This document shows positions 1 to 54,970 of a stretch of 64,000 nt of DNA, one piece after another. The translations under genes and the position numbers were made by a program. The notes beneath the pieces were generated by a model that did no database searches, was not told the origin of the DNA, and saw nothing but the letters and a program-made list of their open reading frames with translations. The DNA lies in NCBI GenBank assembly GCA_049509455.1, contig JBEKZX010000002.1, positions 2,764-66,763 on the forward strand. The letters are read 5' to 3'. The stretch's first letter is position 1. The number at the start of each line of letters is the position of its first letter. This stretch comes from Conexivisphaerales archaeon. Its GTDB lineage: Archaea; Thermoproteota; Nitrososphaeria; Conexivisphaerales; DTJL01.

Positions 1-1187
1 TTCCCCTTTGGCTCATCTTCCTGATGGGAGGCGTCCTCGTCATGCTCGCGGGCCTCGTCTCGCCGGCTCAGGCTCAGTCGGCGGTGGACCTCCGGGTCAT
101 CGCCTTCCTGTTCAGCATGTTCGCGATAACGGCGGGGCTGCAGATATCGGGCGACCTGGACCGCTTCACCCGGTGGATCGTGGGCCACGCCCACAGGCCC
201 GGGGAGCTGGTCCTGTTCGTCTCGGTGGGGTTCGGCCTGGCGTCGTCCGTGCTGATGAACGATACGCTGGCGGTGATGGGGACGCCCATCCTGATAGCCA
301 CCGCCAGGAGCCTGGGAATGAAGGCGAAGCCGCTGCTCCTCACGCTGGCGTTCGCCGTGACCATAGGGAGCGCCCTGACACCCATAGGGAACCCCCAGAA
401 CATGCTGATAGCCGTCGAAAGCGGGATGCCTCAGCCCTTCCTATACTACGTCTATTACCTCCTCCCGTCCACGCTCATCAACATCGGCATCCTCTCGGGC
501 TTCGTCTACCTCGTCTTCCGCAAGGACCTGAAAGCCATGAAGGGGGCTCCCCCGGGCGACGAGCCTCCCTGCGACAGGCGGCTTTCTCTGCTCAGCCGCG
601 CGGCCCTGGCCCTGGCGGTGGGCGGGATGGTCGCCGTCAACGTCCTTTCCCTGGTCGGCCTGAGCTACGACATAGGCATAAGCGAGGTCGCCCTGGCGGC
701 CGCCGCCTTCCTCCTGCTGGCTTCGAAGCGCAGGAGTGAGATCCTGGCGAAGGTCGACTGGGGCGTGCTGGTCATGTTCGCCGGCCTCTTCGTGTTCACC
801 AGGGGGATCTACAACGGCGGCCTCGTCGACTTGATCAAGCCCATCTTCGGATCGTTCACGGGGCTGGAGCTCCTCCTGTTCATAGTGGTCTCCAGCGTGG
901 CCATCAGCCAGATAGTGAGCAACGTCCCCCTGGTGACCCTCCTCCTTCCCCTCTACGCGCAGATCATCCCGGCCACGTCCATCGCCCTGTGGGCGGCCTT
1001 CGCCGGCTCCAGCACCCTGGCGGGGAACGTCACCCTCCTGGGGGCCGCCAGCAACCTGATAATCGTCGAACAGGCCGAGAAGGAGGGGGAGCAGATCGGC
1101 TTCGGCGAATTCCTCAAGCTCGGGATACCCCTGTCGCTGGCCTGCCTGGCCGTCCTGATACTGACCTTCATCCCCTACGCCAAGTAG
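1..1187 (+). CDS. ArsB/NhaD-superfamily (YbiR-like) anion permease, probably 5'-truncated by the window edge
   Basis: 387-aa multi-TM ORF (24..1187) with permease-type motif TIGSALTPIGNPQNMLIA. The frame stays open upstream of the ATG to nt 3. Confidence 0.6.
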   Translation, partial: PLWLIFLMGGVLVMLAGLVSPAQAQSAVDLRVIAFLFSMFAITAGLQISGDLDRFTRWIVGHAHRPGELVLFVSVGFGLASSVLMNDTLAVMGTPILIATARSLGMKAKPLLLTLAFAVTIGSALTPIGNPQNMLIAVESGMPQPFLYYVYYLLPSTLINIGILSGFVYLVFRKDLKAMKGAPPGDEPPCDRRLSLLSRAALALAVGGMVAVNVLSLVGLSYDIGISEVALAAAAFLLLASKRRSEILAKVDWGVLVMFAGLFVFTRGIYNGGLVDLIKPIFGSFTGLELLLFIVVSSVAISQIVSNVPLVTLLLPLYAQIIPATSIALWAAFAGSSTLAGNVTLLGAASNLIIVEQAEKEGEQIGFGEFLKLGIPLSLACLAVLILTFIPYAK

Positions 1188-6149: not shown

Positions 6150-6389
6150 CTAGCGCTGCAGGAAGGCAACGTAGGCGCCGTAGCCGGTCCTGTCCACGGC
6201 TTCCCTGATCTCCTCTACTCTGACCTTCGAAGGGTCGTAGTCGACGAACACCTTGTTCAGCATCACAGCTACCCTGACGTCCGAGACGCCGTCCAGCTTC
6301 TTCGTCTGCTTCTCGATGGCCATGGCGCAGGTGGCACAGCTGATCTCCCTGACGAGGAAGGCCGCCCTGGACCGTTTGCCGTGCGTCAG
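6150..6389 (-). CDS. HMA (CopZ-like) metal-binding domain with no ATG/GTG/TTG start, probably a frameshifted C-terminal metal-binding domain of copA
   Basis: Hand translation of the minus strand gives ...RSRAAFLVREISCATCAMAIEKQTKKLDGVSDVRVAVMLNKVFVDYDPSKVRVEEIREAVDRTGYGAYVAFLQR*. The CxxC is at 6327-6338 and the stop at 6150-6152. The frame is -1 relative to copA and remains open back across the copA stop (6395-6397). Confidence 0.6.
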   Translation of the reverse strand: MTHGKRSRAAFLVREISCATCAMAIEKQTKKLDGVSDVRVAVMLNKVFVDYDPSKVRVEEIREAVDRTGYGAYVAFLQR

Positions 6390-6394
6390 GTGGC

Positions 6395-8479
6395 TTACGC
6401 CTCCTTCGCCTTGAACCTGAACAGCGTCAGCGAGTTGCTCACTACGGTCACCGAGCTCAACGCCATGGCCCCTGCGGCGAGGAAGGGGAGGGTGTTGTAG
6501 ATTCCTATGCCGAAGAGGGGCACCAGAGCGCCTGCGGCGATGGGTATGAGCAGGACGTTGTAGGCGAAGGCCCAGAACAGGTTCTGCCTGATCTTCGATA
6601 GGGTGCTCCTGCTCAGCCTGATGGCGGTCGCTACGTCACTCAGGTCCTCCCCGATCAGCACGATGCCGCCGGTCTCCTTGGCGATGTCGGTTCCGCTGCC
6701 GATGGCGATGCCCACGTCGGCCTTGGCCAGGGCCGGAGCGTCGTTGATGCCGTCCCCCACCATGGCCACCACGAGGCCCTCCTTCTGGAGCGATTCGATG
6801 GCCTCCTCCTTCTGCTGGGGGAGGACATCGGCGACGTAACGGTCGATGCCCGTCGACTTCGCAATGGCCGCGGCCACCCTGGCGTTGTCACCGGTGACCA
6901 TTATCACGCTTACGTTGAGCTTCTTCAAGGCGCTGACGGCGTTCGCGGCTGACGGCTTGAGCGTGTCGGCCACGCCGATCAAGCCGACGATCCTGCCGTC
7001 AACCGACAAGATCATCACCGTCTTTCCCTGCCGTTCCAGCCCATCAATCTTCGCATCTACGGCGGGAAGCCCTTCGTGATTGGCGAAGTTCTTCCTGTTG
7101 CCCAGAAAGACGTTCTTTCCGTCGACTTCGGCCCTGACGCCGCTTCCGGTCACCGCTTCGAAACCCTTCGTTTCGAGGAGCTGCAACGCCCTTGACGACG
7201 ACTCGGCCACTATAGCCCTGGCCAGGGGGTGCTCTGAGGCCTTCTCGACCGAGCCGGCGATCCTCGCTATGGTGTCGGCGTCGAGGTTCGCTGTCGGCAC
7301 AACGTCGGTGACAGATGGCCTGCCGACGGTGAGGGTCCCCGTCTTGTCGAAGGCCACGGCGTTGACCTTGGCCGCGCGCTCAAGGTACTCCCCACCCTTG
7401 ATCAGTATGCCGTTCTCGGCACCTTTGCTCGTCCCCACCAGCAGCGCCGCGGGCGTCGCTATTCCCAGGGCGCAGGGGCAGGCGATGACGACGACGGAGA
7501 CGAATATCAGGACGGCGAAGTTCGGCGCCACATGCCCAAAGAGTAGCCAAGCCACCCCGGCGATCACTGCGACAGAGACGACCATGGGAACGAAGTAGGA
7601 GGCGATCCTGTCGGCCAGGCGCTGGATGGGGGCCCTGCCGACCTGGGCTTCTTCGACCAGCCTGACGATCTGGGAGAGGGTCGTATCCTGGCCGACCTTA
7701 TCGGCCCTGACCTTGAGGAGCCCGGTCATGTTGAGGGTGGCGCCGATGACCTGGTCACCTTCCGCCTTCTCCGCGGGGATGCTCTCCCCCGTCACAGCCG
7801 ATTCGTCCACGGTCGACGGGCCTTGGATGACGACTCCGTCCACCGGGACCTTTTCGCCGGGCTTCACGAGGAGGATGTCGCCAACCTCCACATGTTCTAC
7901 GGGGACCTCCTCCTCCACGCCACCCTTCAGCCTGCGGGCCATCGTCGGCTGGAGGTCCATCAGCTTCCTGACGGCGTCGGAGGCGCGGGCCTTGGTGACG
8001 TGCTCGAGGTAGTTCCCGGCTAGGATCAGCGTTATGATGACGGCTGAAGTGTCGAAGTAGACGCTCGTCGTCGGGGCCAGCTTGGGGAACAGGGTCACCG
8101 CGTAGGAGTATGCCCACGCCGCGCTGGTTCCCAGGGCTATCAGCACGTCCATGTTCCCCATCCTGTTCCTGATGCTATCGTAGGTCCCCCTGTAGAACCG
8201 CCAACCCACGATGAACTGTACCGGCGTGTCCAGGATCAAGAGGATATAATTAGACGGCCGGGGAGGGAACAGGGCCAGATATGTAACGAGCAGGATGGGC
8301 ACGGTGAGGACCCCCGACGCGACGAGAGAGTACTTCAGGATCTTGAGGGCCCGCTCCGGAGCTACGAATTGCTGCAGACATGTCTCGCTACAGAAGTAGT
8401 AGGTGGTCCCCCTTACTGTAGCCTTGAGCTCGGCCGTCGTCTCGTCCACGAACATGCCGCACACGGGATCTTTTGCCAA
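6395..8479 (-). CDS. copA: Copper-translocating P1B-type ATPase with N-terminal TRASH/YHS-type domain
   Basis: 694 aa. Motifs are N-terminal CGMFVD...YYFCSETC, a CPC transmembrane motif ([11 protein letters not shown]), DKTGTLT and GDGINDAP. Confidence 0.9.
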
Positions 8480-8540
8480 AGAGTGAAGTGCACAACGGAT
8501 TGGGAGCTTAAAACGGTTTCAACAGATGCCATCGACATGG

Positions 8541-8993
8541 CTACTTTCGACGTTCGGAGGGGAGCCCTAGGACCAGCCTGACCGAGGATTCGATCTCATC
8601 AGCGACCTCCTCGTAGCTCACCTCCCCCTTGGAGGGGTCGTCTAAGTCTTGGGGGCTGTTCTTGGCGTATTCGCTCAGCGTGAACACCCTGCCCAAAAGG
8701 AAGGGGTGCTTGGAGAGTATCCTCTCCTTCTGCGACCTGGTCATGGTCAACACCATGTCCTTCGGACCTATGTCGGGTCGGAAGACCTTGGACCTGTGCG
8801 AAGTGAGGTCGACCCCCCTAGCCTTCATCGTCTCAATGGTCTCCTCCGTCGCCGGCATCCCTGCGAGGGCATCGAGGCCAGAGGAGTCCACCTTAACCTT
8901 GGAGATGTTGTTGTCGTGTAAGAGCTTCCGAGTGATGCCTTCCGCCATGGGGCTCCTGCAGGCGTTGGCCGAGCAGACGAACAGTATCTTCAT
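8541..8993 (-). CDS. Low-molecular-weight protein-tyrosine phosphatase / ArsC-type reductase family
   Basis: 150 aa. The N-terminal MKILFVCSANACRSPMAEG carries the CX5R(S/T) P-loop. Confidence 0.8.
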   Translation of the reverse strand: MKILFVCSANACRSPMAEGITRKLLHDNNISKVKVDSSGLDALAGMPATEETIETMKARGVDLTSHRSKVFRPDIGPKDMVLTMTRSQKERILSKHPFLLGRVFTLSEYAKNSPQDLDDPSKGEVSYEEVADEIESSVRLVLGLPSERRK

Positions 8994-9053
8994 GAATCTC
9001 CAAGGTGAGCGCGACCGGCAATATAGGGATGCCGCTATCCTATTCGAAGGGTC

Positions 9054-9947
9054 TCAATCGCTCCTGCTGATTAGGATTATCCCGGCGAAAAGGATGGCCC
9101 CGCCGACGATCTGAACCGATGTGATGGGCTCTCCGAGAAGGACGTGGGCGTAGAGAGTCCCGAAGAGAGAGCCGGTAGAGAATACCAAGAGGCTCCTGAC
9201 CGCCCCGATCCTGCTGAGCGCAAGGTAGAGGAAGGCCGTGGTGAGGCCGACGGGGATTATCCCAATGAGCACAATGTAAGGAATCGTGGAGGCCTCAATC
9301 GAGATGTTCTGCCCTGAGACCAAGATGAACGCTAGGAGCGTGAGCCCGCCAACGAGATTCCTCCACTTTGCCATTACTATGGCGTCTACGTGTAGGCTCA
9401 GCTTTCGGACGAGGTTGTTTTCGATGCTCCAGGATAATGTCGCCCCGAGGATGAAGAGGCTGCCGGCGAGGTTACTCAGAAGGGACGTGGCATGCAGGTT
9501 GAGGTTTGTGGAGATGGCTACGATGCCTGCCACCACGAGCAGGCTGGCGAAGTACTGGCGGCGGCTGAGAGACTCTTTGAAGATCGCTATCGCTATGATT
9601 GAAGTGAACAGGAGCTCGCCGTTGGAGAGAAGGGCTGTGCTCACAGCAGACGTGAGCCTGAGGCCGCTGTAGAAGAGGATGGGCCCGATGATAGCTCCAC
9701 ACAGGGTGACCAGGGCGAAGAGCGGAAGGCTCCCGCGGTCAATCTTGGCTGTGGGCCTATAGGCAAACAACATTAGACCGCCGACTGTGGCGGCAGAAGA
9801 GGCTATGAGGATGGGACTGGCTGAGCCCAAGGCTAACTTGCCCAGCGCGGAGGCCGAGCCATAGCCTAGGGCCGCCAGAAAGGCGAAGATGTATCCCTGG
9901 AGTCGTCTATTATGTTGTTCGAGCTGCAATCCTTCGTTTGTAACCAA
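9054..9947 (-). CDS. EamA/DMT-family transporter
   Basis: 297 aa with about 10 hydrophobic segments arranged as two EamA-like halves. Confidence 0.65.
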   Translation of the reverse strand: MVTNEGLQLEQHNRRLQGYIFAFLAALGYGSASALGKLALGSASPILIASSAATVGGLMLFAYRPTAKIDRGSLPLFALVTLCGAIIGPILFYSGLRLTSAVSTALLSNGELLFTSIIAIAIFKESLSRRQYFASLLVVAGIVAISTNLNLHATSLLSNLAGSLFILGATLSWSIENNLVRKLSLHVDAIVMAKWRNLVGGLTLLAFILVSGQNISIEASTIPYIVLIGIIPVGLTTAFLYLALSRIGAVRSLLVFSTGSLFGTLYAHVLLGEPITSVQIVGGAILFAGIILISRSD

Positions 9948-41019: not shown

Positions 41020-41531
41020 GATAATGTGTGAACTAGGTTGTTAATCTTAATGAACTAACGTTGAGAGGAATTGTGAAGGTCCAGCCTAGTTTACTGGAGT
41101 TAGCAGGCACTATTCGCCCTTGTTGGGAGTAAGCGGCTGCACGGGTTCCAGTGGACGCACTGGGGTGGCGGTGGTCGGTTAACAAACTTAAAGGTGTAGA
41201 TTGGGTCCACTGGAAACAATGGGGTTCAAAGCTGGCTCCTTTTGGTTGCGATACAAGTGTATGTTAACAAATAGGCTACTATCTATGATTGTCGTTCAGG
41301 TTGATGAGGGGCACCCGTAGATCGCCAGTGGAGACCCCTTATAGAATCTGGAATATTGACTATTGGCGTCGAAGTAGTCTAGACTAGATTTAACTGTCTT
41401 ATCAGTCAACTAGTGTTAACATGATTGTATATATGCTTCTTGGGGCATCAAATAGCGGTATATTTTCCATCTTCCCGTTTATCATCTTTAACTTATATAT
41501 TTTCCAGTGGAAGTAATGGGGGGAGGGGCTC
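41020..41531. other. Chromosomal replication origin (oriC) with ORB boxes and an AT-rich unwinding element
   Basis: There are three same-orientation boxes: TTCCAGTGGA-N5-TGGGG at 41143-41165, GTCCACTGGA-N5-TGGGG at 41203-41224 and TTCCAGTGGA-N5-TGGGGGG at 41500-41524. One degenerate inverted box lies at 41314-41336. The AT-rich stretch 41340-41500 sits between the inverted and last boxes. The locus is directly upstream of orc1/cdc6. Confidence 0.8.
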
Positions 41532-42734
41532 TTGTCAAACCCATCAAGCGATCCATTAAATGACATATTCGATAGGGCGATTAACGGGGAAAGTCTCTTC
41601 CTAAACAGAAATGCCCTCAGGAACGAATTCATCCCTAACCAAATCCACTTCAGAGACGAACAGATCAAGAATGTGGGCCAAATATTATCCCCCGCTCTCA
41701 CTGGTCACAAACCTTCTAGTCTGTTAATTTACGGCAAAACCGGCACAGGGAAGACCGTAGTCGTAAGATATGTAATCAACCGCCTAGTCGAGAGAAGCAA
41801 AACAATGGACACAAACATCCGAACGGCCTATGTGAATACACGCGTAGCTTCAACCGAGTATCGAATTCTGTCTGAAGTTGCGATTGAGCTGGGAGTAGCT
41901 TTACCATTTACCGGACTGTCTCTCAGTGAAGCATTCAATAGAATAACTAGCAACATGAGAGAACACTCGCTCAAAACCATCTTCGTTCTTGACGAGATCG
42001 ATTTTCTGGTCAAATCGTCAGGCGACAACCTCCTTTACGAATTCACTAGAGCCAACGAAAATTTGACCAACAACGCTTTCATCGCGTTAGTGGGGATATC
42101 CAACGACCTCAAATTCAAAGAGACACTCGATCCGAGGGTCCTTAGCAGCCTAAACGAAGAAGAAATAGTGTTCTCTCCCTACTCAGTAGACGAACTAAGG
42201 GCCATCTTGCGCGAACGGATTGAGGTAGCTTTTGTCCCAGGGAAAGTAAGCGAAGCCGCAGTCAACCTGTGCGCAGGCATGGGGGCCGCAGAGCATGGAG
42301 ACGCGAGACGCGCCGTCGACCTCCTTCGAGTAGCTGGAGAGCTTGCTGAAAGAGAAGGCGCGCAAACGGTTGAGGACTCCCATGTAAGAGAAGCCTCGAA
42401 GAGCATCGAAAGAGACCGAGTGCTTGAAGCAATCCAGTCATTACCCATTCATGGCAAATTGACACTCCTAGCCGTCTCATCCTTCAAAGAAGCCGAGAAC
42501 ACAGGCCATATATACGCCAAATACATTGAGGTCACCAAACAACTTGGGCTCGAACCCTTGACGCAGAGAAGGGTAAGCGGCCTCCTAAGTGAACTTGATC
42601 TCTTGGGACTTGTTTCGGCTCCAGTCGTTAGCAAGGGCAGGATGGGCCGATCCAAGAAGGTCAGGCTGGAAATACCACAACAGGTCGTCGAAGCCTCTCT
42701 CAAGGACGATGAAACCGTCAAAACGCTTCTCTAG
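41532..42734 (+). CDS. cdc6: Orc1/Cdc6 replication initiator
   Basis: 400 aa with a TTG start. It has Walker A GKTGTGKT, Walker B LDEIDF and a C-terminal winged helix. Confidence 0.9.
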   Translation: MSNPSSDPLNDIFDRAINGESLFLNRNALRNEFIPNQIHFRDEQIKNVGQILSPALTGHKPSSLLIYGKTGTGKTVVVRYVINRLVERSKTMDTNIRTAYVNTRVASTEYRILSEVAIELGVALPFTGLSLSEAFNRITSNMREHSLKTIFVLDEIDFLVKSSGDNLLYEFTRANENLTNNAFIALVGISNDLKFKETLDPRVLSSLNEEEIVFSPYSVDELRAILRERIEVAFVPGKVSEAAVNLCAGMGAAEHGDARRAVDLLRVAGELAEREGAQTVEDSHVREASKSIERDRVLEAIQSLPIHGKLTLLAVSSFKEAENTGHIYAKYIEVTKQLGLEPLTQRRVSGLLSELDLLGLVSAPVVSKGRMGRSKKVRLEIPQQVVEASLKDDETVKTLL

Positions 42735-42736
42735 GC

Positions 42737-44227
42737 TCAAGCGCGCCACAAGACATCAAAAGTTGATAGGTCTACTAGCGCCGCTTTTCCTTGGCTTCGC
42801 ACAGCAGATTTCGTACCGGCAATCCAAGACGGAGTAGAGAGCAACAGCGTACCTCTGTAAACTTCTTCATCAGGTATACCAACATGGCCACAATGCATTA
42901 TGTCAGGTATAGGATCTATAATCAGCAGGTCATCCTTCTCTGGAGCCAACAGCGTCAAGCCACCATACGTTGGAGCCACATGCCTAGCTCTGAGCAAAGC
43001 GCGCATTCCCGTAGAGGGTCGGCTCACGGAGACAGACTGTAGCTGCCTGAACACTTCATCTAGACTCTGCCCATGATAGAGGAGTACATTCACGCCATCA
43101 AGTCTTACCATGGAGGGGTTACCCAACATGACGACATTTTTCATTTCATAAAGTCTCTTGGCGTACTTCCTTATGATTGCAGGCTGGGGCAAAGCAATTC
43201 TAGTAGCATCCGTGTCTCCTGGTGTGAGGAAAATCTTCATCGGCCTCCTTATGTTTTCAAGATATCCTGCGAGCACATCATAGGAAGACCTAACGTCATG
43301 CTCACTCAGGCGTCCATCGCCTGCCAACGGATTTTCGATAAGATCACCATTCAAGACCAGATATCCGATCCTAGACACCACTTCAAGTTCACCTAGGTCT
43401 CCATTAATCCAGTCAATCATCTTCTGAAACGAAGTCTCGTCAAAGTCTGGCGACCCCACATGAAGGTCTGACAAGAACATAGCATAGATTTTTTTATCGG
43501 CCGTCCTCTTGGCCCTCTCGGGCACATCTAGATGGTAGATATTCTTAGCATAATACCCTCTAGGTTGCGACTCAACTTCCACCAAAACGAACTCATCAAT
43601 GAGAACTTCGTCCATCTTGCGTATCGCGTCGCCTGTACACATCAGTCGAAGGTACCCGCTATCGTCCTCCAGCGTTAAAGACATATAATCACTTGAAATC
43701 TTTTTAGACGCTACAAGTCCAACCACTTTCGCTAGGACTTTTCTACCTGAGAGCGGGGTCTTAATGGCATTCAGCTTCTCAATCTGGAAGAAATCTGGCC
43801 GACCCCTGATTAGCGAAGACATCCTCTCGAGCCTGTTCCTAAACATTAGAACATATCCCGATGTATCAGTAGTCGGGCTGATGGCGCTCGTTGGATCAGA
43901 AAGCACTTCGAAATCTAGAACGAGCTCCCTTTCCGCGTCCTCCAGGTCATTTCTAGAATGCAAAAACGGTTTGATATCCTTGGAGCCTATGACGAAGTGT
44001 TTTCCACGCTGTTTGGCCTTCGTTTTCATAACGGCCTCAAGAACGCGAAGTACCGAATCCGGCTCTCCTTCCTGATCGAGGAGCTCCCGTACCGCATCCA
44101 ATTCCACTTGGTAGCCCTGTTCTAACATCCTCCTTACTATCATGACTTCGTCGTCCTTTCGGCTTGCCATCGGATTCGCGTTACTACTGTTCTGGAGGCG
44201 CCCTATTTTACGATTATATTCATGCAT
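42737..44227 (-). CDS. DNA polymerase D small subunit DP1 (Mre11-like phosphoesterase/exonuclease)
   Basis: 496 aa with an OB-fold region followed by the calcineurin-like motifs FLSDLHVGS, NGDLIE, PGDTD, YHGQS and HCGHVG. Confidence 0.9.
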   Translation of the reverse strand: MHEYNRKIGRLQNSSNANPMASRKDDEVMIVRRMLEQGYQVELDAVRELLDQEGEPDSVLRVLEAVMKTKAKQRGKHFVIGSKDIKPFLHSRNDLEDAERELVLDFEVLSDPTSAISPTTDTSGYVLMFRNRLERMSSLIRGRPDFFQIEKLNAIKTPLSGRKVLAKVVGLVASKKISSDYMSLTLEDDSGYLRLMCTGDAIRKMDEVLIDEFVLVEVESQPRGYYAKNIYHLDVPERAKRTADKKIYAMFLSDLHVGSPDFDETSFQKMIDWINGDLGELEVVSRIGYLVLNGDLIENPLAGDGRLSEHDVRSSYDVLAGYLENIRRPMKIFLTPGDTDATRIALPQPAIIRKYAKRLYEMKNVVMLGNPSMVRLDGVNVLLYHGQSLDEVFRQLQSVSVSRPSTGMRALLRARHVAPTYGGLTLLAPEKDDLLIIDPIPDIMHCGHVGIPDEEVYRGTLLLSTPSWIAGTKSAVRSQGKAALVDLSTFDVLWRA

Positions 44228-51143: not shown

Positions 51144-51210
51144 TGCCCCCCAGCTCCGGTCGAAATTCTTAAAAACTCCCACTGGGTCGTGGCTTCAAGA
51201 GCCCCGGAAG

Positions 51211-51323
51211 GCCCCGGTACCTCGTCAGTGCCCGAGGCTGGAAAGCATAGTGGTCGAATGTGCTTCCTTGGTAGACTCGATACAAAGAGGAAGAGACCGC
51301 GGGTTCAAATCCCGCCCGGGGCT
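51211..51323 (+). tRNA. tRNA-Thr(GGU) with two inferred introns (after position 8 and at 37/38)
   Basis: Acceptor GCCCCGG/CCGGGGC+U, D arm GCAU-AGUGGUCGA-AUGU, anticodon stem CUUCC/GGAAG with loop UUGGUA|~14 nt|A, and T arm GCGGG-UUCAAAU-CCCGC. The heptamer GCCCCGG is duplicated 3 nt upstream (51201). Confidence 0.65.
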
Positions 51324-51401
51324 CCTTTTCAGAGGCGTCTAGAGTATGGTCTGACGCATGTCGCCAATTCAGAATCGAACGCATCTATCCCCTCGTGTGA
51401 G

Positions 51402-51665
51402 ATGATCCGAACGCTCGAAATCCTATTCGAGTCCTCTAGGGATAAGCCTGTGCTGATGTCGGCACACATCGGAGAAAGGCTGTCCACAGCACCTCTCTTG
51501 AAGGCCCACCCCATCATCTTTGAAGACACGTCCCCAGATGATGCCAGCCCAATGATTGCGCTCATACGAGAATTCCTAGTGGCAGTGGGTCAACGCAGTT
51601 TCAAGAAGACAGTAAAGGGACATAAAAAAGCGGTGCAAGCTCTAGCAGACGAAGCCGTCTCTTGA
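51402..51665 (+). CDS. Hypothetical protein
   Basis: 87-aa ORF from the first ATG downstream of the tRNA. The longer track ORF 51189..51665 runs through the tRNA gene. Confidence 0.3.
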   Translation: MIRTLEILFESSRDKPVLMSAHIGERLSTAPLLKAHPIIFEDTSPDDASPMIALIREFLVAVGQRSFKKTVKGHKKAVQALADEAVS

Positions 51666-52722: not shown

Positions 52723-53082
52723 ATGATGTCGAGACCTGCCGACGACGACGATTCGTACCATGCCAAGGCGTCGAAAATCGTCGATTCTGGCGGTGTCAAG
52801 CGACATATCTTCGAACCCAGCGGAACCGAAATCTGGACCGTCGTCGGAGCGGAAGGAGAGTATCTTGTATCCGATGACCCCCCATTGTGCACGTGTCCAG
52901 CCTTCTACTTCTCTCTGACGCGTGGCAAAAAGAGGAACTGCCATCACCTCATAGCCGTGGAACTGGCCAAGCAGGAGGACCATGTGGCGACGACGGTGGG
53001 ACGAGACGAGGAGATCCGCATATTCCTGAAGTTACTCTGCGAAGAGGCCAGCGAGGACGACAGCAGTCAGCTTAATGAATAA
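52723..53082 (+). CDS. SWIM zinc-finger protein
   Basis: 119 aa with CTCPAFYF...CHHLIAV, which is the CxCxnCxH SWIM signature. Confidence 0.65.
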   Translation: MMSRPADDDDSYHAKASKIVDSGGVKRHIFEPSGTEIWTVVGAEGEYLVSDDPPLCTCPAFYFSLTRGKKRNCHHLIAVELAKQEDHVATTVGRDEEIRIFLKLLCEEASEDDSSQLNE

Positions 53083-53247
53083 GTTCTTTCACTCAATGAC
53101 TGAGGCTGTGAGATGCATGTACCTCAAGGATTCTAGGTTCCAGAAGATGACCGACTTGGGTTTCGAGCCTCGCCTGGGTCACCATCTTGCTGAAGTGACC
53201 TCGGCCTGAGCCAGCCGTCGAAACGGTCACCGTTCAGGTCGCAATAA

Positions 53248-53442
53248 AGGACTGCTGGCTCTGGTTCCAAAACCATTATCGGTGAAGCTATCCTTCCTGC
53301 TTATCTAGACCATGTCTTCAGCCATTATAACGTCAGATGCCTCGAAGGCGTCAAAATCGCGCTTGGCGACCTACTTAACAGGAAGACCCTAGCCCTATTC
53401 ACAGGACACGACTGGTTATACGACAGGTTCTCGCAGGAATAG
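53248..53442 (+). pseudogene. Start-less protein-like ORF fragment (possible gene relic)
   Basis: Hand translation gives RTAGSGSKTIIGEAILPAYLDHVFSHYNVRCLEGVKIALGDLLNRKTLALFTGHDWLYDRFSQE*. It has no ATG/GTG/TTG start. The same frame stays open for 42 more codons after the TAG, up to the next TAG at 53569-53571. Confidence 0.3.
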
Positions 53443-54005
53443 GCCCCCTCAACCACTAGCTCCTACTTTTCGGGAACCTCCCAAGTCGTAGTAGGTTGTT
53501 TACGTCAGGTAGGTTTCGACGGCCCCGAAATACGCCAACGAAGTTATGCCGCATCCCCCGAAAAGGGTTAGCTCATGTTAGCTCATTTCCTGTCGTCGGC
53601 CCGTCGGCGGTAGGTCGGTGACGACAATTCTCCTTTCCGACCTAAGCCTGTTTCCTCTTCGTCAGTGTTAGGCCCACAGGCTCTATATTGGTCAACACGA
53701 ACCAAAAACACTAAACGGAACTAACCCCGCCACCGAGGGAACTAACCCTCCAACGGACCGCAAGAGCCACCAGAAGTCGAGGAAGGCTCGGGGGAGGGAG
53801 AGGAGGGAGGTCGGGAAGGCGCAAACCAATAAGGGAAGCAACGTAGACCACCGATGGGCAAAGTGCAGGTGCAATGGATTTACAACGGTTTCGAGGCGGA
53901 GATGACAGTACCGCAGTTGACAGAACCCCTCGGCCCTAGTCGGCTCCCCACCGTCGCCTTCTTGCCCTGCACCTTCCTTCTTCCCTCGCCTCCTACCGTC
54001 GCGGG

Positions 54006-54144
54006 TGGGAGGTTGTGAGAGGTTGTCTCCGTCGGCTGGGAGGTTGGTGGGAGGTTGGTGGGAGGTTCGCCTAGGGTTGGTGGGAGGTTCGCCTAGGGTT
54101 GGTGGGAGGTTCACTACCTCCTACTTCTGCGTCGGTGGGAGGTT
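54006..54144 (+). repeat. Iteron cluster A: 7 copies of TGGGAGGTT plus 1 variant, phased at multiples of ~11 bp
   Basis: Copies start at 54006, (54016 TGAGAGGTT), 54037, 54048, 54059, 54081, 54103 and 54136. The cluster includes the perfect 22-bp tandem GGTTGGTGGGAGGTTCGCCTAG at 54053-54074 and 54075-54096, plus a 16-nt third copy. Confidence 0.9.
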
Positions 54145-54213
54145 TGTCAAGAGATTCGGGTCTGATGTTCGTCGGCTAACGAGATAACGGGTAGAACAAA
54201 CGATACCCATTGC

Positions 54214-54274
54214 TGGGAGGTTAGTGGGAGGTTGCGGGAGGTTAATGGGAGGTTTTGGGAGGCATTGGGAGGCA
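54214..54274 (+). repeat. Iteron cluster B: 6 copies of (T/C)GGGAGG(TT/CA) at 10-11 bp spacing
   Basis: Copies start at 54214, 54225, 54235, 54246, 54256 and 54266. Confidence 0.9.
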
Positions 54275-54387
54275 TGAACCCCCCCGTTAAGGCTATCACT
54301 ATAGAAGACCCAAGCAGAAAACAGGCTCAAGTCGGAGAGGAGAATTCTATCCTCGGCCACCTCTCCGGCCCAGACCCTTCTCCGGAG

Positions 54388-54405
54388 ACCTCCCACTACC
54401 TCCCA
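54388..54405 (-). repeat. Two inverted iteron copies (ACCTCCCA x2, 10 bp apart)
   Basis: The copies lie at 54388-54395 and 54398-54405. A further full inverted copy, AACCTCCCA, lies at 53475-53483. Confidence 0.8.
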
Positions 54406-54471
54406 CCCCTCTTGACGGATGCGGTATAACACCAAAGACCACTTTCACGCGGTCTCCGGGGCTCGCACGAC

Positions 54472-54672
54472 ATGAGCATCCCAGACTTCTTCAACGAGTG
54501 CGTCGACTTCTACCAGATGAACCACGGCATGATTTCGGAGCTACGCTTCAAGAACGTGGCCATGGTCGACTACATTGACCTGCTGAAGGCGAAGATAACC
54601 TTGCTGGAGCAACGAATCGACACGCAGGACATGGCTACCCAAACGGTTTACGAGATGATGACGAATAGGTGA
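54472..54672 (+). CDS. Hypothetical 66-aa helical protein, the only intact ORF in the island
   Basis: ATG-initiated ORF with a coiled-coil-like segment (IDLLKAKITLLEQRIDTQD). No family was recognised. Confidence 0.3.
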   Translation: MSIPDFFNECVDFYQMNHGMISELRFKNVAMVDYIDLLKAKITLLEQRIDTQDMATQTVYEMMTNR

Positions 54673-54781
54673 ACACGTTAGCACCTCCTAGACCTTGCCT
54701 CAGGCTGACCGCCCACTCCCAAGGCATCCAGAACGGAGATCCTGAATCAGAATGGTGATATATTTTATGCTTAGAGTTAGG

Positions 54782-54856
54782 AGCCTCGGAGGGGCTTCGC
54801 TCCCCTGACCCACAGCTTACAAGGCTGTTGCTCTAACTAGGCTGAGCTACCGAGGC
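54782..54856 (-). tRNA. tRNA-Thr(UGU) with non-canonical D and T loops
   Basis: GCCUCGG-UA-GCUC-AGCCUAGUUA-GAGC-A-ACAGC-CUUGUAA-GCUGU-GGGUC-AGGGG-AGCGAAG-CCCCU-CCGAGGC-U. The stems are intact, but the T loop is AGCGAAG instead of UUCRAAU and the D loop lacks the GG pair. Confidence 0.6.
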
Positions 54857-54881
54857 CCTCGAACAACTCTCCCCAAGAGGC

Positions 54882-54890
54882 AATTATATA
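54882..54890 (-). promoter_or_regulatory. TATA box for tRNA-Thr(UGU)
   Basis: The minus strand reads TATATAATT about 26-32 nt upstream of the tRNA 5' end. Confidence 0.45.
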
Positions 54891-54970
54891 CTTCGCTTCT
54901 TCGACGCGGCGGACGACATTCGCTTCAGGTCGGCAACACATTTTTAACTCTTGCCCCTTGAGCCGAATTC

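Follow-up and report, generated by a model that had tools for sequence, protein, structure and literature searches.

Iteron plasmids (pPS10, pSC101, P1, F and RK2) combine Rep-binding iterons with an inverted partial iteron at the rep promoter, and the type II/Ib centromeres (R1 parC with ParR, pSK41 parC, TP228 parH with ParG) carry two phased clusters of ~10-11-bp repeats with a small gene nearby. Elements integrated at archaeal tRNA genes have been catalogued for Thaumarchaeota. To our knowledge, almost nothing is known of mobile elements in the non-ammonia-oxidising Nitrososphaeria (Conexivisphaerales), and an iteron-like control region has yet to be described from them. Here we report on a repeat locus in a Conexivisphaerales contig, within a window of 64 kb (the whole stretch of DNA that was analysed), which a first-pass annotation had compared to plasmid iterons or a parC-type centromere. 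The formal layout was upheld, as a non-coding, locus-specific direct array with inverted copies by a promoter-like block, but the suggestion of an active origin or centromere of this replicon was not. The arrays belong to a small, previously undescribed non-coding module and are not a working plasmid origin or centromere.

The motif TGGGAGGTT occurs in 11 exact copies in the 64-kb window against 0.64 expected, a count reached in none of 100 shuffles, and all of them are confined to 53475-54254. Ten start at 54006, 54037, 54048, 54059, 54081, 54103, 54136, 54214, 54225 and 54246, and one lies on the minus strand at 53475. One-mismatch copies were found at 54016 (TGAGAGGTT) and 54235 (CGGGAGGTT) and, on the minus strand, at 54387 and 54397; beyond the locus, 18 one-mismatch matches were counted in the window and 16.8 are expected by chance. 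The arrays are thus genuine and specific to this locus. As for the individual copies listed in the first pass, the ten starts are exact, but 54235 has one mismatch, and 54256 and 54266 read TGGGAGGCA, two mismatches from TGGGAGGTT. The ~70-bp unique spacer reported between the two arrays measures 69 bp, the inverted copies are present at 54387-54407 and, in exact form, at 53475-53483, the CGTCGG prefixes stand at 54030 and 54130 as described, and Tandem Repeats Finder agrees that nothing comparable exists elsewhere in the 64 kb.

Start-to-start spacings are, in order, 10, 21, 11, 11, 22, 22 and 33 bp in array A, 78 bp between the arrays, and 11, 10, 11, 10 and 10 bp in array B. Direct repeats in helical phase of the iteron type are therefore present, as 11-bp units and as three 22-bp double units in array A (AACCTCCCACC plus a degenerate AACCCTAGGCG), which also embeds an opposite-sense copy at 54112-54124. 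The spacings of 10, 11, 21, 22 and 33 bp support the helical phasing claimed earlier, but the claim that all copies face the same side of the duplex is only approximately true: modulo 11 almost every copy falls in a single phase, and taken modulo 10.5 the copies shift by 4 bp over the length of cluster A, with those of cluster B ~4.5 bp out of phase. The phase is maintained even over non-repeat DNA, for example from 54016 to 54037. Since units of 10 and 11 nt cannot hold a reading frame, the arrays are non-coding. A coding (PPTNL-type) repeat was rejected: none of the unit lengths (10, 11 and 22 nt) is divisible by 3, and the 20- and 22-bp indels between strains would shift the frame; ORFs spanning the arrays gave no family matches.

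Those indels come from seven strains that differ by ~1 SNP per kb and yet carry two whole-unit length changes. The 22-bp unit of array A at 54071-54092 is present in the window and in L011 and missing in five other strains, and array B of strain L007 has a 20-bp whole-unit deletion (54246-54265). Repeat number hence drifts between near-identical strains, an outcome that the first-pass annotation had itself named as speaking against its reading. For practical work, the arrays offer a hypervariable marker for telling strains apart, and they cause assemblies to break. An invertible promoter switch was also considered and rejected, orientation polymorphism being absent among nine assemblies.

Table 1. 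Features of the repeat locus and its surroundings (window coordinates), with the matched motifs of the three modules.
Feature	Position	Strand	Description
178-aa gene remnant	53199..53328	-	only residues 136-178 left, frameshifted; left edge of foreign DNA
Lineage-specific insert	53330..54779	.	~1.45 kb, truncated gene to tRNA-Thr 3' end
Isolated exact TGGGAGGTT copy	53475..53483	-	loop of a CCTACT/AGTAGG hairpin, left of left module
Left module	53505..53760	+	diverged inverted copy of right-module architecture; nhmmer E=2.6e-47
Left block 1	53543-53556	+	left module
Left block 2	53565-53586	+	2 x GTTAGCTCAT; complementary to own array
Left core	53625-53656	+	left module
Left array	53717-53727, 53738-53748	+	2 x GGAACTAACCC
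Array A	54006..54144	-	nine good or variant units
Inter-array spacer	54145..54213	.	unique, 69 bp
Array B	54214..54274	-	six units AACCTCCCA or GCCTCCCA; + strand reads TGGGAGGTT or TGGGAGGCA; 10-11 nt spacing
Right blocks 4-5	54278..54347	-	conserved 70-nt core, GAATTCTCCTCTCCGACTTGAGCCTGTTTTCTGC...CTATAGTGATAGCCTTAACGGGGGGGT
Right block 3	54348..54386	-	variable G-rich stretch
Right block 2	54387..54407	-	two tandem 10-nt anti-repeats, GGTGGGAGGTA GTGGGAGGTC; inverted copies of the first-pass annotation
Right block 1	54417..54430	-	GTTATACCGCATCC (ggTATAAC on + strand); weak TATA-like GTTATACC, 54424-54430
Right block 0	54431..54472	-	AGACC/GGTCT hairpin; aligns with L139 362-404 and window 53505-53542
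ORF66	54472..54672	+	small acidic two-helix protein, 66 aa
tRNA-Thr(TGT)	54780..54856	-	3' end abuts insert; same tRNA bounds the L004 and L135 inserts
Right module, anti-repeat/array			GTGGGAGGT / AACCTCCCAC
L139 module, anti-repeat/array			GGTGGCAGGT / AACCTG(T/C)CACC (array also given as AACCTGTCACC)
Left module, anti-repeat/array			GGGTTAGCTCA / GGAACTAACCC

As listed in Table 1, the arrays make up the 3' portion of a ~470-nt module that is read on the minus strand from ~54472 to ~54000, in the order block 0/1, two anti-repeats, variable G-rich stretch, 70-nt core and variable-length array. Block 0 was retrieved by nhmmer with the module profile, and it shares sequence with the ORF66 5' leader and ATG on the opposite strand. 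Block 1, whose TATA-like element adjoins the two anti-repeats, is possibly a promoter. Block 2 is the reverse complement of the array unit, its 21 nt being 90% complementary to 54003-54023. The G-rich block 3 is poorly kept between modules and diverges by 17% from L013 (neighbouring intergenic DNA ~5.5%), and the core is 84% identical to positions 487-556 of L139, a distant module homologue that adjoins a homologue of ORF66; the linked ORF reaches 56% at the nucleotide level. The 69-bp spacer shows weak similarity to sequence beyond the L139 array.

One architecture was observed in three diverged modules, namely the right and left modules of the window and L139: a GTYATRCCGC block, two tandem 10-nt anti-repeats, the conserved core and a 10-11-nt repeat array. 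The module profile scored these three full modules at 1e-46 to 1e-52 and the partial L013 and L014 copies at 1e-27 to 1e-33, and nhmmer returned no other match. The left module is also evident as inverted-repeat arms and in three-way alignments. In every module the anti-repeat is the reverse complement of its own array unit, while the motif differs between modules. When this specificity was scored by an own-versus-other cross table and shuffle tests, the own-array match was equalled in 0 of 2000 shuffles for the right module, 0 of 2000 for L139 and 15 of 2000 for the left module. A specific recognition system would be expected to swap its motif in anti-repeat and array together, as is seen here. 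In L139 the block-2 G stands opposite a majority array T, which is G-U compatible; in the left module one anti-repeat/array difference is a C-A mismatch and not a wobble. Two further candidates were rejected. The inverted modules are not transposon ends, as the ends bear different motifs and a target duplication is not visible, and a rolling-circle nick site in the core is not conserved, CTTGAT of L139 being CTTAAC in the window.

The lineage-specific insert that holds both window modules abuts a tRNA-Thr gene. Searched by tblastn, the 178-aa protein of L004 is full length in L135, L136 and L137 (60-64% identity) and is reduced to two short pieces in the window, where DNA homology to L004 stops near 53355. 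The insert is missing from the syntenic loci L135 and L004, and the locus is missing in the related species and genomes compared. In L135 only 875 bp lie between the SWIM and PRPP synthetase genes, and the 178-aa gene reaches ~40 nt from the tRNA-Thr 3' end. At the same site L004 has a different 3.4-kb insert, with a 17-bp repeat of the tRNA-Thr 3' end on either side. These relatives show that the tRNA-Thr 3' end is an insertion hotspot, and in the window neither the 17-bp repeat nor a second copy of the tRNA end is left. We infer that the 1.45-kb insert is the relic of an integrated mobile element, from the window context only, since no mobile-element genes are visible in the 1.86 kb of L139, which adjoins a TudS-type gene. 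Integrase arm-type sites, which would lie within ~200 bp of the core site at the tRNA end, were rejected: the inverted copies lie 373 bp and the direct arrays at least 506 bp from the tRNA 3' end (54780), and there is no integrase.

Of conserved proteins, ORF66 alone is linked to the module family. One distant homologue (P0011, E=4.8e-8, 38% identity) was found among 1.84 billion representatives. Its identity to the L139 homologue by codon position (0.53/0.69/0.45) indicates long-term coding. Compared with L013 it has 6 non-synonymous changes and 1 synonymous change, with none at third positions, and purifying selection is not seen within the lineage, in which ORF66 is probably 5'-truncated or rearranged. 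AlphaFold2 modelled it with a pLDDT of 92.8; there was no fold match, PDB fold and sequence searches were uninformative, and neither PADLOC nor Pfam gave a match. A ribbon-helix-helix binder had been suggested by an N-x-G-x-x-S-E turn and was rejected, as the protein is acidic and the AlphaFold2 models of the 66-aa form and its 85-aa homologue are all-helical, without a beta strand. From these models an acidic, all-helical ORF66 is unlikely to be a DNA binder. No ORF66 paralogue adjoins the left module, and no candidate binding protein was found in or beside either locus (window and L139).

No relative of the module was found in plasmids and phages (blastn) or in viral contigs, and no intact parent element in any of these or in metagenomes. 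The viral-contig search used three DNA patterns and an ORF66 profile; a fourth pattern, the triple motif, retrieved only an unrelated phage array. A pseudo-protein search with the translated core likewise gave no module relative.

Our preferred reading, to which we assign a probability of roughly 0.45, is that the arrays belong, as its repeat part, to a non-coding control module left by a decayed mobile element once integrated at the tRNA-Thr 3' end, and that they serve as matched operator/iteron-like recognition sites. The motif would be the recognition site of a sequence-specific factor, with the promoter-proximal anti-repeat pair as its operator and cooperative binding along the phased array. 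The array may then serve for iteron-like titration or handcuffing, or as a centromere-type site, and specificity would differ from one module variant to the next, much as it does among plasmid incompatibility groups. As the factor is not encoded in the locus and ORF66 is an unlikely binder, the arrays in this chromosome are probably a residual, slippage-prone relic and not an active origin or centromere. Against the recognition-site reading, three specificities would require three proteins, and anti-repeat/array complementarity is equally predicted by RNA pairing. The drift of repeat number between near-identical strains and the lack of an adjoining A+T-rich unwinding element also count against it.

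An RNA-pairing mechanism is a serious rival, though one that we regard as doubtful. In a module transcribed, in the window, from the minus strand, the 5' anti-repeats would pair with array units into a length-variable, register-shifting stem round the core, which would regulate the linked small gene or act in trans. Complementarity that persists in three modules, each with a different motif and none with a gene for a cognate protein, fits this proposal, as does a 70-nt core whose 84% identity exceeds the 69% seen at second codon positions in the linked gene. In L139 the only TATA-like element (CATAAAG, ~392-400) precedes the module, and the array is followed on that strand by the ORF, so that the ORF66 homologue would have the whole module in its 5' leader. 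Between block 2 and the distal array dimer at 54003-54023, 19 Watson-Crick pairs and 1 G-U pair can form over 21 positions, the block-2 G of L139 is G-U compatible with the majority array T, and CGTCRG is strictly strand-biased (seven on the plus strand and none on the minus, ~1.25 expected). However, fold z-scores are weak (-1.3 to -2.25), the RNAalifold covariation term is unfavourable (positive) with no supported helix in the core, and the C-A difference of the left module offers no wobble. Rfam 15 supplied no relative: at 53000-54900 it matched tRNA-Thr and otherwise a chance-level lncRNA (E=2.6, 53013-53041) outside the modules, and in L139 its matches were at chance level, none across the module. 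A 10-11-nt period with phase-keeping has no obvious meaning for RNA either, and the window module is divergent from ORF66 and so cannot be its leader. It is unlikely, in our judgement, that the locus is a neutral minisatellite, with arrays made by replication slippage and inverted copies by fold-back duplication, and nothing that binds or pairs. The whole-unit indels among near-identical strains, the missing region in related species and an ORF66 without purifying selection within the lineage would all follow, and a metagenome scan for the triple motif gave at least 120 loci with three or more phased GGGAGGTT units, of which only L124, from the same species, is homologous, the others being unrelated 10/11-bp minisatellites. 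Yet slippage leaves unexplained the isolated in-phase copies amid non-repeat DNA, the parallel replacement of anti-repeat and array motifs in three modules, and an 84% core beside a 56% gene.

The original proposal of an active iteron-type origin or parC-type centromere for this replicon now appears highly improbable. Two clusters of helically phased direct repeats, the inverted copies near a promoter-like block and a distance of only 12.5 kb from the chromosomal origin speak for it, but the true chromosomal origin of the genome is at 41.1-41.5 kb, where ORB boxes (TTCCAGTGGAAGTAATGGGG) at 41146, 41205 and 41502 precede orc1/cdc6 (41532-42734). With ORB boxes, orc1/cdc6 and the GC-skew turn all at 41.1-42.7 kb and no ORB box at the arrays, these were rejected as a chromosomal origin. 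Pfam, PHROGs, NCBIfam and PADLOC revealed no Rep gene in any ORF of 51.9-58.2 kb, and no ParA/ParM NTPase or ParR-type ribbon-helix-helix gene was found near the arrays; the first-pass annotation had likewise seen no Rep or ParA/ParM-type gene. Nor does an A+T-rich unwinding element adjoin the arrays, which are themselves G-rich: the lowest 40-bp G+C values in the insert are 30% at 54739, which is by the tRNA end and ~470 bp away from array B, and 35% at 53684 in the left module, whereas oriC reaches 22.5%. The locus is missing in related genomes, and no TATA-like element or recognisable promoter was seen in the spacer between the two phased blocks. Least credible of all is an action of the motif through its sequence as such, as a ribosome/anti-Shine-Dalgarno sponge or a G-quadruplex cluster. 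GGGAGGU does pair with the ACCUCCU of the 16S 3' end (...GGAUCACCUCCU), so the Shine-Dalgarno match noted earlier is real, but the homologous modules carry GGTGGCAGGT / AACCTGTCACC and GTTAGCTCAT / GGAACTAACCC instead, which are neither Shine-Dalgarno-like nor rich in G-runs. A Shine-Dalgarno mimic is rejected, and the resemblance is incidental given that the motif differs between modules; this motif swap largely refutes the whole proposal. The G-quadruplex potential raised in the first pass appears unremarkable: G4Hunter gives 1.72 at 54037-54066 and 2.08 at 53778-53820, but 27 regions of the window score at least 1.5, the canonical pattern of four runs of at least three G with 1-7-nt loops occurs only at 53790-53815, and the arrays require 8-nt loops for three tetrads.

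More speculatively, and quite improbably on present evidence, the locus may represent a self-contained, undescribed archaeal cassette in which the anti-repeat by the core specifies the array by base-pairing, either as an RNA that pairs with it in shifting registers or as an RNA template or guide for copying or recognising the array units, with the small ORF66-family protein as partner. Such a layout, with about two template repeats beside a conserved core, resembles the template of telomerase RNA. In any case the locus supplies a defined and searchable non-coding module of 70-nt core, anti-repeat and array, whose specificity motif is exchanged in step between copies. Should a protein turn out to recognise the motif, the module would mark control regions of archaeal replicons or partition systems that form a new family, along with their incompatibility determinants; should recognition work through RNA pairing, it would be a riboregulatory or templating element of a new kind.

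Compared with known systems, the locus shares with the type II/Ib centromeres its two phased repeat clusters and nearby small gene, but there is no ParM/ParA NTPase, ORF66 is acidic and all-helical without the ribbon-helix-helix strand, and the spacer has no recognisable promoter. The L139 order of promoter, tandem array and protein gene resembles type III toxin-antitoxin systems (ToxIN), although the units are 10-11 nt and not 34-45 nt, the protein is not ToxN-like and the upstream anti-repeat has no ToxIN counterpart. Like the common region of geminiviruses and CRESS-DNA viruses, the locus has a conserved non-coding core and lineage-specific direct and inverted iterons near a TATA element that co-vary with specificity, but it lacks an HUH Rep gene and the conserved nonanucleotide stem-loop, and its arrays are much longer. 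As in elements integrated at archaeal tRNA genes, lineage-specific DNA abuts a tRNA 3' end, and the relative L004 retains the tRNA-end direct repeat round its own insert; unlike them, the window has neither integrase nor attachment repeat, and only 1.45 kb is left. Iteron plasmids differ in possessing a Rep gene and an A+T-rich unwinding element. Here, the promoter-proximal copies are a tandem pair and not a palindrome, a 70-nt core stands between pair and array, and the setting is a chromosomal relic in an archaeal host. What the locus has in common with iteron plasmids is a helically phased direct array of 11- and 22-bp units, opposite-orientation motif copies by a promoter-like block and, like incompatibility specificities, a motif that changes in both places together between related elements.

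The window contains 11 exact copies of TGGGAGGTT (0.64 expected in 64 kb), all of them within 53475-54254, so the repeats described in the first-pass annotation were borne out. A one-mismatch search added copies at 54016, 54235, 54387(-) and 54397(-), and the 18 matches in the remaining window were at chance level (16.8 expected). Tandem Repeats Finder detected no other array of this kind in the 64 kb; together with the one-mismatch count, this upheld for the 64 kb the earlier statement that the clustering is confined to this locus. Start-to-start spacings were 10, 21, 11, 11, 22, 22 and 33 in cluster A (54006-54144) and 11, 10, 11, 10 and 10 in cluster B (54214-54274), with a spacer of 69 bp of unique sequence between them. 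The proposal that all copies share one helix face fits an 11-bp period and holds only approximately for 10.5 bp. A second enriched motif, CGTCRG, occurred seven times on the plus strand and never on the minus strand (about 1.25 expected). The observation of the arrays is thus confirmed.

What is new here is a module family and its matched motif change. Alignments A3 and A5 showed non-coding DNA of L139, a contig from a second lineage, to be clearly homologous to the minus strand of the window from 54472 to 54130 and also to the plus strand from 53505 to 53760. The order of parts, blocks 0, 1, 2, 3, 4-5 and 6, is common to all three modules. Clusters A and B are block 6 of the right module (minus-strand unit AACCTCCCAC(C)), the inverted copies at 54387-54407 from the first-pass annotation are its block 2, and the long nested inverted repeats I1 and I2 are the left and right modules face to face. 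Despite different motifs, block 2 (the anti-repeat) is the reverse complement of its own array unit in 3 of 3 modules. In a cross table every anti-repeat fitted its own array and not those of the others, with one exception, the second L139 anti-repeat, which retains the GGGAGGT form. Shuffled downstream sequence matched as well as the real one in 0, 0 and 15 of 2000 trials each for the right, L139 and left modules. Because the motif is replaced, in matched fashion, in homologous modules, the likeness of GGGAGGT to a Shine-Dalgarno sequence raised earlier is incidental. The evidence for the module rests on three copies from two lineages, and its profile, searched against the window and 140 fetched loci, matched only the source sequences and their orthologues.

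Features of the locus, its modules and the chromosomal origin
Feature	Position	Strand	Description
ORB box consensus			TTCCAGTGGA(A/C)G...GGGG
orc1/cdc6	41532-42734		directly downstream of ORB boxes and A+T-rich stretch
PolD small subunit gene	42737-44227	minus	
SWIM-finger gene	52723-53082		
Pseudogene remnant	53199-53328	minus	residues 136-178 of 178-aa gene, frameshifted
tRNA-Thr(TGT)	54780-54856	minus	
Block 0			upstream stretch, small hairpin
Block 1			GTYATRCCGCMYCC
Block 2			about 10 nt, two copies in tandem
Block 3			about 40 nt, variable, G-rich
Blocks 4-5			core, GAATTCTCCTYTYCGACYTRAGCCTGTTTYCT...CTATRGYRATAGCCTTRAYGGGGGGGT
Block 6			direct-repeat array, 10-11-nt units
Right module	~54472 to ~54000	minus	anti-repeat GTGGGAGGT; array AACCTCCCAC, about 15 units
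L139 module			anti-repeat GGTGGCAGGT; array AACCTG(T/C)CACC, about 6 units, spaced 11, 10, 11, 11, 21
Left module	53505-53760	plus	anti-repeat GGGTTAGCTCA; array GGAACTAACCC, 2 units, 21 nt apart
Right-module block 3	54329-54387		divergence from L013/L014 strain 17%
Flanking segment	54388-54471		divergence from L013/L014 strain 2.4%
Neighbouring intergenic DNA			divergence from L013/L014 strain ~5.5%
PRPP synthetase			divergence from L013/L014 strain 2.9%; 16/26 changes at third codon positions
ORF66	54472-54672	plus	divergence from L013/L014 strain 3.5%; 7 changes, 0 third-position, 6 non-synonymous

ORF66, the 66-aa ORF beside the right module, had one distant homologue among 1.84 billion representative proteins searched exhaustively with HMMER. 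This protein, P0011, is encoded on L139 (E=4.8e-8, 38% identity); the match spans its C-terminal 64 residues, and its "N-terminal" part is gene-caller read-through of non-coding DNA. Between the window and L139, nucleotide identity is 56% for the linked ORF (0.53/0.69/0.45 by codon position) and 84% for the 70-nt core. These identities and the codon-position pattern show that ORF66 is a member of a genuine protein family, and that the non-coding core is more strongly constrained than the protein. In L139 the module, array and ORF follow one another on one strand; the neighbours there differ from those in the window, a TudS-related gene lying downstream and a tRNA being absent. The inverted module of the window adjoins the ORF66 ATG with its block 0, and ORF66 is shorter than the L139 form by 19-20 N-terminal residues. 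Judged by the codon positions of its changes, ORF66 shows no sign of purifying selection in the window's lineage. Taken with the arrangement and the missing N-terminus, this suggests a rearranged, perhaps decaying copy. Two long helices were predicted for ORF66 and three for the 85-aa L139 form.

Seven same-species assemblies (L006-L011 and L124) differed from the window by about 1 SNP per kb over 16 kb. Nonetheless, the comparison of copy number across strains, as proposed in the first-pass annotation, revealed two whole-unit indels in their arrays: a 22-bp unit (54071-54092) occurs only in the window and L011, and a 20-bp unit pair (54246-54265) is absent from L007. Two contigs, L013 and L014, from a strain that is slightly less closely related stop about 150 nt upstream of ORF66, probably owing to an assembly break at the repeats. 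Against this strain, 54329-54387 showed 10 substitutions and a 2-nt indel in 59 nt, forming a local hypervariable patch flanked by two well-conserved blocks.

The arrays lie in a 1.7-kb gene-poor gap between the SWIM-finger gene and tRNA-Thr(TGT), beyond which PRPP synthetase and then topoisomerase IA follow. Related genomes reveal the earlier state of this gap. In the corresponding locus L135, a conserved minus-strand gene encoding about 178 aa stops about 40 nt from the tRNA-Thr 3' end, and the gap from SWIM gene to PRPP synthetase totals 875 bp. In L004, whose PRPP synthetase is 76% identical, a 17-bp duplicate of the tRNA-Thr 3' end, AGGAGCCTCGGAGGGGC, comes after the 178-aa gene, and 3.4 kb of other genes (6383-9830) separate this copy from the intact tRNA-Thr. 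The insert, bracketed by the 17-bp direct repeat, carries TusA/SnoaL, DsrE and one double winged-helix Lrp/AsnC-type gene and no integrase; the arrangement is an integration footprint in the tRNA end. L004, L135, L136 and L137 all encode the 178-aa protein, of unknown function, at full length. Since this gene is truncated in the window and DNA homology to L004 ends near 53355, the comparison with L135 and L004 indicates that about 1.45 kb (53330-54779) is lineage-specific. We infer that this segment is the remnant of an element integrated at tRNA-Thr and later eroded by deletion, which also took most of the 178-aa gene. The window retains no duplicate of the tRNA end, and L004 shows no GGGAGGT clustering.

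Directly after the SWIM stop lies a stretch of about 75 non-coding nt, GGCTGTGAGATGCATGTACCTCAAGGATTCTAGGTTCCAGAAGATGACC...GTTTCGAGCCTC (53100-53175), which is also found at L004 5700-5775, L135 795-870 and L136 5455-5525. It is conserved although the SWIM proteins are just 64-67% identical between those genomes, may represent an RNA or a terminator/3' UTR element, and gave no Rfam match. At 51244-51315, next to a 158-aa ORF (51189-51665), Rfam gave a weak partial tRNA match (33.8 bits, model positions 9-63) without an ARAGORN call. An isolated exact motif copy lies within 53454-53495, where AACCTCCCA on the plus strand, opposite in sense to the arrays, sits in the loop of a CCTACT/AGTAGG hairpin; the preceding CACTAGCTCCTAC recurs at 54112 and 54394. 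The module model does not account for this copy.

The window is part of an archaeal chromosome, with genes for 16S and 23S rRNA, and the database entry with an identical SWIM protein names Conexivisphaerales archaeon as its source. The chromosomal replication origin is easy to recognise at 41100-41532. Three ORB boxes (TTCCAGTGGAAGTAATGGGG and variants) occur at 41146-41165, 41205-41224 and 41502-41521, the A+T-rich stretch beside orc1/cdc6 falls to 22.5% G+C over 40 bp, both PolD subunit genes are close by, and the cumulative GC skew maximum coincides with this site. As the repeat locus lacks an ORB box and lies 12.5 kb from this site, the arrays were ruled out as the chromosomal origin.

Plasmid and phage collections yielded no similarity, viral contigs no relatives of the core or ORF66, and the translated core no matches. 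Scanning metagenomes for GGGAGGTT in three phased units gave at least 120 loci, only L124 being homologous; short phased GGGAGGTT arrays are therefore common and uninformative on relationship. One unrelated metagenome contig (L095 100-240, G+C 0.53) carries at its end about 10 copies of (C/T)GTGGGAGGTTT, with an 11-bp unit length as in the window, nearly the same motif and no module homology. The earlier G-quadruplex idea found no backing, the potential of the locus being ordinary for this genome. The sole canonical pattern of the region, GGGGGAGGGAGAGGAGGGAGGTCGGG at 53790-53815 (G4Hunter 2.08), falls outside the arrays, in the interval that separates the left and right modules.

Protein and RNA mechanisms predict one and the same matched pattern. 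We favour, with a probability of roughly 0.45, a sequence-specific DNA-binding factor that reads the motif. Such a factor would bind the promoter-proximal pair and, cooperatively, the phased array, following classical iteron/operator or centromere logic with a specificity that differs per module. The 10-11-bp period of all modules, the in-phase copies across non-repeat DNA (54016-54037 and 54103-54136) and the 22-bp double units argue for it, as do the weak RNA fold z-scores (-1.3 to -2.25), the unfavourable (positive) covariation term and the lack of an Rfam match for the module. Against it, no candidate binder is encoded at the window locus or in L139, ORF66 is acidic, predicted all-helix and without a fold match, and no A+T-rich element adjoins the arrays.

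RNA pairing of anti-repeats with array units, which we regard as somewhat unlikely, would provide three specificities without proteins and agrees with the very high core conservation. The only TATA-like element of L139 lies upstream of the module, which would therefore be a 5' leader of the ORF66 homologue. Moreover, 54388-54408 and 54003-54023 could form a 21-nt duplex (19 Watson-Crick pairs and 1 G-U), and one difference in L139 is G-U compatible. However, the window module faces away from ORF66, and one left-module difference gives a C-A mismatch. A functionless relic or minisatellite is unlikely; the matched motif change and core constraint are not easily explained by a purely neutral minisatellite. 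As for known systems, the likeness to iterons or a centromere drawn in the first-pass annotation stands in its formal logic, i.e. specific, matched direct and inverted sites, but not as an origin or centromere at work in this replicon, an active one being highly improbable. For the DNA-binding factor, the module-specific specificity would be analogous to incompatibility groups.
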